This document shows positions 43,549-46,438 of a stretch of 64,000 bases of DNA, in pieces (the first letter of the stretch is position 1; each line of letters starts with the position of its first letter). A program made the translations under genes and the position numbers. Below the pieces are notes generated by a model. The model was not told where the DNA came from. It saw nothing but the letters and a program-made list of their open reading frames with translations, and did no database searches. Source of the stretch: a virus; IMG/VR virus record IMGVR_UViG_3300045988_163768; one strand, given 5' to 3'.

Positions 43549-45060
43549 ATGGGCAATTTATATAATGAGAAGTCAATAGAATCATTAAGCCCGCGGGAGT
43601 TTACACGACTTAGACCTGGGGTTTATTGTGGGTCCACGGAGTATTCAACCCAGCTATTGATTGAGATTGTATCTAATGCTATTGATGAGTTTCAAGCGGG
43701 AAATGGAAACATAATAAATGTAGATTATAAAGATGATGGCTCTTGTACAGTAGAAGATTTTGCTCAAGGCTTTCCAGTGAATATTATGAGAGAAGATGGG
43801 GAAAGCGTTTTGCAAGCTTCTTTTGATGTTTTAAATACTTCTGGTAAGTTTTCAGAAGATGGTGTGTATGAAGGCACAGCTTTAGGTTTAAATGGAATTG
43901 GAAGTAAATTAACAAATTTTCTTTCAAGTAACCTAAATGTTAAAACTTTTAGAGATGGTCATTTTGAATCTATCTATTTTGAAGATGGAATTTTTAAATC
44001 AAGAGAGACAGGATTGCAGAGAGATCATCATACTGGAACTATTGTTTCCTGGAAACCAGATAAACAATTTTTTAATCACGCGGAAATAGATGAGAAAAGA
44101 ATAAAAGAATTATTTCATGTATTAGTTTGTTTATGTCCAGGATTGACAATTAACTTAACCCATAATGGAAAAGATGCTATTGAATATGTTTCAAAAAATG
44201 GTCTTGATGACTTAGTTTCAGATAAAGTTAAAGATACTGAAATTATTAACAATAGACTATGCATTAAACATAGTAATGGTAAAAATAAAATTGATTTAGT
44301 ATTGACATATACAAAAAATTATTCAACTAATATGATTTCTTATGTTAATACAGGAGAAACAGATGCAGGACCGCATATTACACAGATTAAGTCTTTAATT
44401 ACTAGAGAATTTAATAAATTCTTTAGAGAGAAAAAGTGGTTGAAAACTAAAGATGATAACTTAGAAGGATCTGCCATACAAGAGGGACTAATGGTAGCTT
44501 TTAATATTACAGCTCCAGGAGTATCCTATGACGCTCAGACTAAATCTAGGATTGTAAAGCTTGATATGACGCCTTTTACTGGTATTATTGCGGAAAATAT
44601 TCAAGAGTGGCTTTTGTCAAATGAAAAAGAGATTAAAGTAATTTTTGATAAAGCAATCGCCGCGAAAAAGGCAAGTGAAGCCGCAAAAAAGGCAAGAGAA
44701 CTTGCAAGAGAAAAAGAAAAGAAGAAAAAAGAAAAAGTTTTAAAATTTGATTCTAAACTCGCGGATTGTTATTCAAAGGATAGAATGAAGTGCGAAATAT
44801 ACGTGACTGAGGGTGATAGTGCTTCAGGTAATCTGAAAACTGCACGAAATAATGAATTCCAAGCGGTTATGCCTGTGAGAGGAAAAATTTTAAATTGTCA
44901 AAAAGCTACACTAACTCAAATTCAGAAAAATGCTGAAATTATGACTATGATTGATGCTTTTGGACTTAAAATTGATCCTAAAACTATGAAAGTAACTTAC
45001 GATAAAGAAGATTTAAGATATGGTAAAATAATTATAATGTCAGACGCGGACGTCGATGGT
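43549..45060 (+). CDS. type II topoisomerase subunit B (GyrB/gp39-like), exon 1: ATPase plus Toprim up to DADVDG
   Basis: Motifs RLRPGVYCGST, IEIVSNAIDE, GLNGIGSK, EGDSASG and DADVDG; the track ORF stops 2 codons later, inside the intron. Confidence 0.7.
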
Positions 45061-46042
45061 ATGTAACAGTGCCTGTTATACCTTTTCCTGCTCATCACAG
45101 GGGTTATTTGGACAATATAATAAAATGAGTTCCATTTGGAATTCATATATGTTATAAAAGAAGAATAGCTAACGGGGGAGCCTAAGTCAGAAGATATGGT
45201 AGTCCCGTGGGAAGGACGTAAAACATGAAAGCAATTTACAAATGGACTAATCTTCAAAATAATAAAATTTATATAGGTAAATCTGTAGATGTTGCAAGGA
45301 GATTAAGAAATTATAGAGATGAAGTTAAAAAAAATAAACAACGACCTATAATTTCTGCAATTAGAAAATACGGATTTGAAAATTTTAATTTTGAAATTGT
45401 TGAAATATGTGATTCTTTAACTAATCAAGAAATATTAGAAAGAGAGCAATGTTGGATTGATTTTTATAATTCTAAAGATAGAAATTTTGGGTATAATATA
45501 TTAGATGCTGGGGATACTCCTGGAGAGGAATATTCAATAGGAAGCAGAAACAATAAAGCGAGATTAAATGAAGAAAAAGTTTTAAATATTAGAGAAATGA
45601 TTTTTCTTCAAAATATTCCTCCTGCGGAAGTATATAAAATATATTCTACTGAAATTAGTTATGATGCTTTTTGTAAAGCTTATCGAGGAAATACTTGGAA
45701 AAATGTTGATACATCAATGATAAGAGATATATCTTCGGAAGTAAAACGAAAAGGAAATAAAAAAGCTAAATTAACTAAAGAGGATGTTAAAGAAATTAGA
45801 AGATTAGCAGAACAAGAAAATTTGAACATTAGTGAAATATATGATAAGTTTCTTGGTGTTTGTACGAGAGGAACAATTAAAAGAGTAGTAAATTACATAA
45901 CATGGAAAAACGTTTAATCCTGTATCGACTAGTAGCGGATCGGCTACGTAGGATTGCTATTGATACGCAATTCGAAATGGGTATTCTACAAAATATTGGT
46001 AGTAAGAGATAGTCAGTACTTATAGAAATATAAGAGAGTATG
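45061..46042 (+). mobile_element. group I-type intron (982 nt) carrying a GIY-YIG homing endonuclease gene
   Basis: 5' exon ends in T, insert ends in G; the flanking ORFs rejoin as DADVDG|AHIKNLFYTF, matching GyrB DADVDGSHIRTL. Confidence 0.6.
45225..45917 (+). CDS. intron-encoded GIY-YIG homing endonuclease
   Basis: AIYKWTN...KIYIGKS...R..NY motif; paralog of 18455 and 51470. Confidence 0.7.
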   Translation: MKAIYKWTNLQNNKIYIGKSVDVARRLRNYRDEVKKNKQRPIISAIRKYGFENFNFEIVEICDSLTNQEILEREQCWIDFYNSKDRNFGYNILDAGDTPGEEYSIGSRNNKARLNEEKVLNIREMIFLQNIPPAEVYKIYSTEISYDAFCKAYRGNTWKNVDTSMIRDISSEVKRKGNKKAKLTKEDVKEIRRLAEQENLNISEIYDKFLGVCTRGTIKRVVNYITWKNV

Positions 46043-46438
46043 GCACACATTAAAAATCTTTTTTATACTTTTATATGGAACTTTTGTCCAGAACTTATAA
46101 AGGATGGATATGTTTACGCGGGAGTTCCACCTTTATATAAAATTACTATTGGAAAAGAATATAAATACTTAAAAAATGATGAAGAATTAGAGGTATTTAA
46201 AAAAGCCAATACAGGAAAGAAGTATTTGGTTGGGCGTATGAAGGGATTAGGTGAAATGTCAGTAGACGAGACAGAAGAAACTCTAACAGATCCTGAGAAA
46301 AGAATTATCAGACAGATTACAGTTGAAGATGTTTCCGCAACAGATATTCTATTTAATCAGCTAATGGGTGCGGGAGTTACTGCAAGAAAAGCTTATATTA
46401 AAAGTCATAGCCAAGAAGCTACTTACAATGCAGAGTAA
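46043..46438 (+). CDS. type II topoisomerase subunit B, exon 2
   Basis: HIKNLFYTFIWNFCPELIKDGYVYAGVPPLYKI and RMKGLGEM match the GyrB C-terminal region. Confidence 0.7.
   Translation, partial: AHIKNLFYTFIWNFCPELIKDGYVYAGVPPLYKITIGKEYKYLKNDEELEVFKKANTGKKYLVGRMKGLGEMSVDETEETLTDPEKRIIRQITVEDVSATDILFNQLMGAGVTARKAYIKSHSQEATYNAE

Follow-up and report, generated by a model that had tools for sequence, protein, structure and literature searches.

Is the topoisomerase locus at 43549–46438 of the IMG/VR virus record IMGVR_UViG_3300045988_163768 a row of separate genes, or a single gene interrupted by a mobile element? The stretch analyzed was 64,000 nt in length (referred to here as the window), and on its + strand, on which all features of the locus lie, three consecutive open reading frames (ORFs) were identified at 43549–45066 (505 aa), 45225–45917 (230 aa), and 46040–46438 (132 aa). 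The analysis indicates that the locus is very probably one gene for the B subunit of a type IIA topoisomerase, interrupted by a mobile group I intron. This reading is based on the exon junction, the intron core, the covariation across the intron family, kinship with the td intron of T4 and the introns of Twort, the endonuclease encoded within the insert, and a signature of mobility among relatives.

The Topoisomerase Gene and Its Exon Junction

The 505-aa ORF was found to match the Pfam domain DNA_gyraseB (97 bits) and positions 1–70 of the 96 positions of Toprim, its C-terminal end reading IIIMSDADVDGM (in longer form RYGKIIIMSDADVDGM) before the stop codon. The 132-aa ORF starts with MAHIKNLFYTFIWNF, followed further on by PPLYKI and GLGEM, and matches DNA_gyraseB_C (60 bits). 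A first-pass annotation of this DNA, made from the sequence alone, had stated that the upstream ORF stops two codons after the DADVDG motif and that the reading frame resumes 979 nt on as the continuation of GyrB. The stop near the motif and the nature of the continuation both stand, the latter supported by the DNA_gyraseB_C match and the ParE alignment described below. In detail, one sense codon (AUG) lies between the Gly codon and an in-frame UAA at 45064–45066, and the ATG at 46040–46042 is intron sequence, with exon 2 beginning at 46043.

Exon 1 (43549–45060) encodes the ATPase, the transducer and the first part of the Toprim domain of a GyrB/ParE-like type IIA B subunit, and its 3′ end reads GAC GUC GAU GGU (DADVDG). 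Exon 2 (46043–46438) encodes the remaining part of Toprim followed by the C-terminal domain of GyrB (AHIKNLFYTF..PPLYKI..KGLGEM..). Joined to one another, the two exons give an in-frame protein of 635 aa, which aligns end to end with ParE of S. pneumoniae (4juo_C; E 1.7e-113) and is ungapped at the junction, where it reads IIIMSDADVDGAHIKNLFYTF; as a sequence match this lies far beyond chance. The gene is uninterrupted in ~76 of 80 related IMG/VR loci, which read SDADVDG(A/S)HIKNLFY and to which the joined product is identical at the junction. The same junction is found in an intron-less allele from metagenomes, L213, which is ~75% identical. The joined-exon 30-mer predicted across the junction is GACGCGGACGTCGATGGT followed by GCACACATTAAA, and the intron-less locus L123 carries GATGCCGATGTCGATGGAGCGCACATT at the insertion site.

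Boundaries between 45060 and 45061 and between 46042 and 46043, as originally proposed for this insert, are the only ones to yield DADVDG followed by AHI without an indel. Because the joined product matches ParE ungapped and agrees with the ~76 uninterrupted relatives, these boundaries are exact and unambiguous. It was likewise confirmed that the last base of exon 1 is a U (U45060) and that of the insert a G (G46042). In a megablast comparison of the gene with GenBank phages no match was obtained, and the closest phage proteins to the topoisomerase subunit share <36% identity.

The Structure of the Intron

The insert (45061–46042; 982 nt), delimited by junction mapping against the ~76 intron-less relatives and with its core helices checked, is an IA2-like group I intron. 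It is assigned to group I because the structural features of this group are present, namely the U·G pair of P1, the omega-G, and the core helices. The first-pass annotation had described a 982-nt group I-type intron carrying a GIY-YIG endonuclease, and this description is borne out by the core helices (62 of the 63 modelled pairs are standard pairs in the window copy), by the covariation of the family, and by a Pfam match of 43.4 bits for the endonuclease. A group I core, on the presence of which that proposal had been made to depend, is detectable in the insert, with P1, P3–P9, and P7.1/P7.2 all forming.

P1 (45058–45073) consists of the last three exon bases and the first two intron bases, GGU and AU (45058–45062), paired with the internal guide GUGCC (45069–45073), which places the U45060·G45071 wobble at the 5′ splice site. 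In P3, the 5′ strand (AUACCUUUU, 45078–45086) pairs with 45976–45984 (AAUGGGUAU) with one U·U mismatch. It is followed by hairpin hp1 (45087–45101; CCUG/CAGG with loop CUCAUCA), by an extended hairpin hp2 (45102–45170), which was taken from the minimum free energy fold and varies in length across the family, and by J3/4 (UAA, 45170–45172). P4 (ACGGGG/UCCCGU), P5 and P5a occupy 45172–45208, with P5 bearing an 11-nt GAAA-tetraloop receptor (CCUAAG/UAUGG). The 5′ strand of P6 (GGG, 45209–45211) pairs with CCU at 45919–45921, with the ORF inside the P6 loop. The 5′ strand of P7 (CGACUA, the R element, 45926–45931) pairs with UAGUC-A-G at 46010–46016, where A46015 is bulged, and P7 is knotted with P3. 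Between P7 and the 3′ strand of P3 sit two covarying hairpins, P7.1 (45932–45947) and P7.2 (45951–45973, with a conserved 9-nt loop, UAUUGAUAC), an arrangement that is a signature of IA2 and whose sequence resembles that of td and Twort. P8 (45986–46002; helix 10 of the family structure) and P9 (46019–46034; GAAA tetraloop at 46025–46028) follow, and the intron ends with the omega-G at 46042, the terminal guanosine of the 3′ splice site, which was located by junction mapping. All core helices of a group I intron form in the window copy, which also retains every invariant column of the family alignment.

With the ORF deleted, the intron folds at −78.3 kcal/mol (z = −3.09), a value equalled by 0 of 200 shuffles. 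The minimum-energy fold of this ORF-deleted form recovers hp1, P4–P5, P6, P7, P7.1, and P9, and P1 as well when short exon flanks are added. Within the window, AUCA of the hp1 loop (45094–45097) is complementary to UGAU of the P7.2 loop (45961–45964), which suggests a possible loop–loop contact; both loops are nearly invariant, and covariation is therefore uninformative here. Two approaches were abandoned during modelling. A scan for P1 without constraints gave too much noise, and the position of P1 was instead taken from the alignment together with the junctions defined by the protein; nor was a helix closing hp1 locally (ACC..GGU) retained, as covariation links its 5′ strand to the sequence preceding P8 and not to the invariant GGGG.

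Covariation in the Intron Family

The non-coding flanks of the insert show a match of ~82% to three Enterococcus phages, in which a different endonuclease ORF lies between those flanks. A family was retrieved using a pattern from the conserved 3′ part of the intron (TGTATCGACTA..TATTGATACG). More than 120 IMG/VR loci share this 3′ core; 53 have a recognizable 5′ half, 13 of which are without an ORF. The alignment used (A1) comprises 45 distinct members, with ORFs and long variable insertions trimmed, and its structure includes P1, P3, hp1, P4, P5, P5a, P6, P7 (knotted with P3), P7.1, P7.2, P8, and P9. As MAFFT shifts the row of the window by one column in columns 29–41 of A1 (7-nt hp1 loop), the pairs of the window copy were checked directly.

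Covariation across the 45 members is strong. Standard pairs account for 91.8% of cells, compared to 74.6% in shuffles and 37–44% with slid partners. Pairs changed on both sides number 42 of 60 (shuffle mean 30.6) and double-change cells number 471 (140 in shuffles), values attained by 0 of 500 shuffles. Covarying helices are P3, P5, P6, P7.1, P7.2, P8, and P9, with the best support found for P7.1, P7.2, P9, hp1, P3, and P6. In P3, for example, the paired columns 32 and 212 hold AU 17, CG 10, GC 8, and UA 3 times, and in P6 a compensatory change from GC to CG is present in 10 of the 45 members. P7.1 and P7.2 are 99–100% paired with compensatory changes in 11 of 12 pairs, and P9 is 98.5% paired with double changes in all 6 pairs, while P8, which is poorly aligned, is 69% paired. 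At the splice-site column of P1 the commonest pair is U·G, with flanking pairs that vary with the exon sequence, and family members end in AYG or CUG at the aligned 3′ splice-site position. Across the family, the AAUCA of the hp1 loop has its complement in the conserved 9-nt loop of P7.2; T4 td and Twort have neither this pair of loops nor the order in which P3 comes first.

A covariance model (R1) was built from A1. As the window is one of its input sequences, the match of R1 to the window (45151–45208 and 45865–46050) is by construction. In a search of the window and the whole Twort genome, R1 finds the three orf142 introns of Twort (E 1e-14, 1.7e-9, and 5.7e-7), and it also finds the 3′ half of the T4-type td intron (E 1.1e-9). 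A further match of R1 is to a P4–P5-like segment elsewhere in the Twort genome (L205 28750–28789; E 1.6e-4), which may be another Twort intron.

The cultured Enterococcus phages VRE9_3, EF1, and EF5 also carry introns of the family that are unannotated (L001 2960–3945; L002 1215–2160). The GIY-YIG ORFs inside them are labelled only “homing endonuclease” or “hypothetical protein”, and the pieces of the genes interrupted by these introns are each annotated as a hypothetical protein of its own.

The Intron-Encoded Endonuclease

The 230-aa ORF of the intron (45225–45917; 693 nt) is intact and encodes a GIY-YIG homing endonuclease, its Pfam score exceeding the cut-off of 22.6 for GIY-YIG (PF01541). 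It matches the catalytic domain of I-TevI (1LN0/1MK0; E 1.5e-5), with the IY.., YIG, R, E (ILEREQ), and N (GYNI) elements aligned, among them the positions of the catalytic Arg, Glu, and Asn of I-TevI, and it also matches homing-endonuclease families of PHROG. At the C terminus, residues 172–223 give a weak helix-turn-helix (HTH)-type PHROG match (E 5.4e-5), and no Pfam match to NUMOD or a zinc finger was obtained in the ORF. A Shine-Dalgarno-like sequence, GAAGGA (45212–45217), lies 8 nt upstream of the endonuclease AUG and abuts the 5′ strand of P6. The intron endonuclease shares ≤40% identity with its counterparts in related introns, and many of these counterparts are broken.

The first-pass annotation had regarded the intron ORF as paralogous to two other GIY-YIG proteins of the window, at 18455 and 51470. 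The gene at 18455–19129 is free-standing, encodes GIY-YIG, NUMOD1, and HTH domains, and lies within the tRNA array of the window, between tRNA genes at 17092–17164 and 19251–19322; the 270-aa ORF at 50981–51793, flanked by genes for an ATP-dependent DNA ligase (49043–50152) and thyX (51815–52495), has a long charged N-terminal part with the GIY-YIG domain C-terminal to it. A resemblance is upheld for the catalytic domain, with identities to the intron ORF of 41% over 98 aa (E 1e-14) for the former and 33% over 92 aa (E 2e-11) for the latter. It does not extend further, since similarity is confined to this domain and the architecture of the 50981–51793 protein is unlike that of the intron endonuclease.

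Insertion Sites and Polymorphism among Relatives

Introns related to that of the window use at least five insertion sites within this gene family, three in the region coding for DADVDG (DA^DV^DG^) and the others at EG^DSA and KGL^GEM. The three sites lie within 13 nt of the DxDxDG coding motif, and in each the guide sequence fits the exon. Site DA^DVDG is used in L014; site DADV^DG in L033, L037, L038, L052, L057, L073, L114, L122, and L127; and site DADVDG^ in the window, L015, L020, L041, and L049.

Locus L135 is 99.6% identical to 43454–44814 of the window, yet is without the window's intron. Its gyrB instead holds three ORF-less family introns, at YVTEG^DSASG, DADV^DG, and KGL^GEM (intron coordinates 1358–1669, 1893–2277, and 2477–2789), and an ORF-containing one is present in its gyrA (3698–4789). 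In L208 the same gyrB carries three endonuclease-containing family introns (1501–2597, 2927–3826, and 4053–5078), these being the identical intron of the window plus two, and in L209 it carries two (1501–2597 and 2927–3826), the identical intron plus one. The intron numbers of L208 and L209 show that intron load is polymorphic in this phage population. An identical endonuclease is present in at least 69 index blocks of a public assembly collection, and the five loci with it that were examined, on contigs of 21–137 kb, have an identically scoring intron core. No empty site with identical flanks was found in IMG/VR. The pattern of presence and absence among close relatives fits that expected of a mobile element.

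Comparison with Known Systems

When compared to T4 td and its endonuclease I-TevI, the sequences of P4–P5, P7, P7.1, and P7.2 and the CGAAA stretch of J7.2/3 are nearly the same, the endonuclease ORF lies in the P6 loop (the P6a loop in td) and its catalytic domain matches that of I-TevI, and the intron is located within the codons for catalytic residues of an enzyme of DNA metabolism. The host gene of td, however, encodes thymidylate synthase and not a topoisomerase B subunit. In addition, td possesses P2 before P3 (UCUAUC/GAUAGA adjoining J3/4), whereas the P3 5′ strand of the window intron comes directly after P1, L7.2 is 2–3 nt in td compared to the conserved 9 nt in the window, and the window intron is without P9.1/P9.2. 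The C-terminal part of the window endonuclease appears only HTH-like, with no zinc finger detected.

The orf142 introns of Twort (I1–I3) share P4–P6, P7, P7.1/P7.2, and P9 with its GAAA loop, and the P4–P5 of the window is nearly identical to that of both td and Twort. The Twort introns differ in being ORF-less and in having the canonical P1–P2–P3, with covarying AAUCC/GGAUU and ACUCC/GGAGU adjoining J3/4. They reportedly self-splice (Landthaler and Shub 1999), and I2 is reported to have a crystal structure. A Twort intron crystal structure is cited in PMC3984707. The window element would work like td/I-TevI, and it belongs to the same broad class of intron as td and Twort.

The colonization of multiple sites has precedents in the nrdE/nrdF introns of the B. 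cereus group (PMC2248736) and the intron-rich Jug phages (PMC12880540). There too, a single essential gene houses related introns at a number of conserved positions, close strains differ in which introns they have, and endonuclease ORFs undergo decay. The window family differs in its host gene and in having three sites within 13 nt (DA^DV^DG^), and near-identical relatives of the window phage carry differing combinations of introns.

Proposed Mechanism and Alternative Explanations

Transcription of the gene would run through the intron, the RNA of which would fold to a ribozyme comprising P1, the P3–P8/P7/P9 domain, the P4–P6 domain, and the P7.1/P7.2 extension. An external guanosine would attack after U45060, at the U·G pair of P1, and the freed exon 1 would then attack after G46042, joining GAU GGU to GCA CAC and giving a 635-aa enzyme with its DxDxDG metal-binding motif intact. 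On unspliced RNA, ribosomes would halt at the UAA two codons into the intron. The I-TevI-like endonuclease produced from the P6-loop ORF would cut intron-less alleles near the conserved site during mixed infection, and repair off the intron-carrying allele would copy the intron into the cut one. Splicing is proposed here from the anatomy of the intron; homing is likewise proposed, and the sporadic presence and absence of introns among close relatives supports cleavage of intron-less alleles only indirectly.

A number of observations weigh against the intron reading. No group I match was obtained with Rfam in the whole window at the gathering threshold or on 44950–46150 at E up to 10, and none at the gathering threshold on 20 related loci. 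The scan of the insert with RF00028, which the first-pass annotation had put forward as a check, was thus negative on the window copy, while it does match ORF-less relatives over the full-length model, scoring 28.7 bits (E 2e-5) in L065 and 37.8 bits (E 1.1e-7) and 22.2 bits (E 5e-3) in L135. Even so, the scores of family members (22–38 bits) are under the gathering score of 50. The canonical IA2 order P1–P2–P3–J3/4–P4 is absent from the window intron, the helix order being non-canonical family-wide (window 45078–45173 with 45958–45984; A1 columns 31–82). The P3 5′ strand stands directly after P1, two hairpins (hp1 and hp2) stand between it and J3/4, and in a search for a canonical P3 adjoining J3/4 the sequence ahead of J3/4 showed no complementarity to the 3′ strand of P3. 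P1 is only 5 bp, and P10 would reach only ~2 bp. P4 and P7 are invariant in A1 and hence uninformative, with P7 partly fixed by the pattern used for collection. An AUG also lies directly before exon 2, with a weak purine-rich stretch (AAGAGAG), making separate translation formally possible. The silence of Rfam on the window is attributed to the endonuclease ORF filling the P6 loop and to a divergent periphery, the core being still present, and the insert is still filed as a group I intron, as the 50-bit gathering score is a curated score threshold and not a structural feature.

The serious alternative, by analogy with the T4 39/mobA/60 element, which is likewise in the Toprim domain, is that of a gene in pieces, in which an endonuclease gene has split the topoisomerase into separately translated parts of 505 and 132 aa that assemble after translation. 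Such genes include T4 gp39/gp60, split by mobA, and the NrdA gene of Aeh1, split by mobE. In its favor, gene calling yields an ORF for each half of the window gene, that of the second half starting with an AUG right at the junction, and Toprim-domain splits of topoisomerase II genes are documented in T4-like and Campylobacter phages (PMC2988022). The T4 element is aimed at the same metal-binding motif of Toprim in a type II topoisomerase of a phage, and at the same inter-codon position, but it has an HNH endonuclease, no ribozyme, two polypeptides with added tails, and ribosome hopping, whereas in the window the proposed RNA splicing would restore a single ORF. Here a complete covarying group I core surrounds the endonuclease ORF, and the C-/N-terminal extension tails kept by all MobA-type splits are missing, the first ORF stopping one codon past the junction. 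Strong AAAGGAG-type sites, used by the phage genes looked at, are absent at exon 2, and ORF-less introns occur at neighboring sites (L033/L135, L041) without any start codon logic. The AUG at exon 2 was rejected as a conserved start codon, relatives in the family having ACG or CUG there. Taken together, we consider a gene in pieces very unlikely at this locus.

There is similarly only a very slight chance that the insert is a relic, descended from a group I intron but having lost splicing, which would leave the topoisomerase gene a pseudogene or poorly working. Decay does occur in the family, as seen from the decayed endonuclease ORFs of many relatives, but the window copy keeps all invariant columns of the family and 62 of 63 pairs, its exons are intact and in frame, and the recurrence of the identical endonuclease in at least 69 index blocks, with a same-scoring core at five loci, points to a maintained and circulating allele. 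Some other recoding device at the same spot, either an intein or a ribosomal bypass of the T4 gene 60 type, is barely credible, even though GyrB inteins are known (PMC4760082) and the coding gap of T4 gene 60 is at exactly this position. In T4 (L206 2458–2990) the 50-nt gap begins after IMTDADHDG and the gene resumes at LGSIYPSLLGFF (LGSIY..), and the window counterpart (45040–46060) reads IMSDADVDG followed by AHIKNLFYTF. An intein is contradicted by the UAA at 45064–45066, two codons into the insert, and by the lack of a Hint domain, and bypass by a gap of 982 nt as against 50 nt and by the lack of a GGU ahead of exon 2 to match the GGU take-off codon. Insofar as sequence can decide, both are refuted.

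Other Features of the Window

Downstream of the interrupted gene lies a gene of the GyrA/ParC type (46661–49009). An array of 33 tRNA genes was identified on the + strand at 4760–20682 (Rfam tRNA, 38–73 bits). One of the unusual features for a phage is an 828-aa ORF (30759–33245) possessing a major vault protein shoulder domain (Pfam, 80 bits) and a vault repeat (39.5 bits). A PIN-PhoH fusion protein is encoded at 39211–40467, and an endolysin with glucosaminidase, amidase_2, and SH3 domains at 40539–42260, the latter of which suggests a Gram-positive host.

Implications for Topoisomerase Genes and the Intron Family

In terms of annotation, ORFs called as 505, 230, and 132 aa correspond to one topoisomerase subunit of 635 aa and an intron-encoded endonuclease, and gene callers split the locus likewise in public assemblies. 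The element itself is of a well-known kind and unsurprising to a specialist. In the literature searched, coverage of which is incomplete but includes a 2014 review of bacterial group I introns, no report was found of group I introns interrupting gyrase or topoisomerase genes of phages, and the present case would extend the range of genes invaded by these introns to a phage topoisomerase of type II. It would also represent a convergence, in that DNA coding for DxDxDG is targeted by mobile elements of unrelated kinds, namely the HNH mobA/bypass cassette in T4 and, in the window, an intron with a GIY-YIG ORF.

What merits a closer look is the multi-site colonization of topoisomerase genes and the non-canonical helix order. 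It is possible, if doubtful at present, that the family represents a large undescribed variant of IA2, without P2, with the P3 5′ strand right after P1, two new hairpins before J3/4, and the hp1 loop kissing the enlarged P7.2 loop, that has specialized in the catalytic motifs of phage topoisomerase II at at least five sites, one of them the bypass position of T4. With >120 loci, both ORF-less and ORF-containing members, and site-switching within 13 nt, the family provides a natural data set for the co-retargeting of guide and endonuclease.

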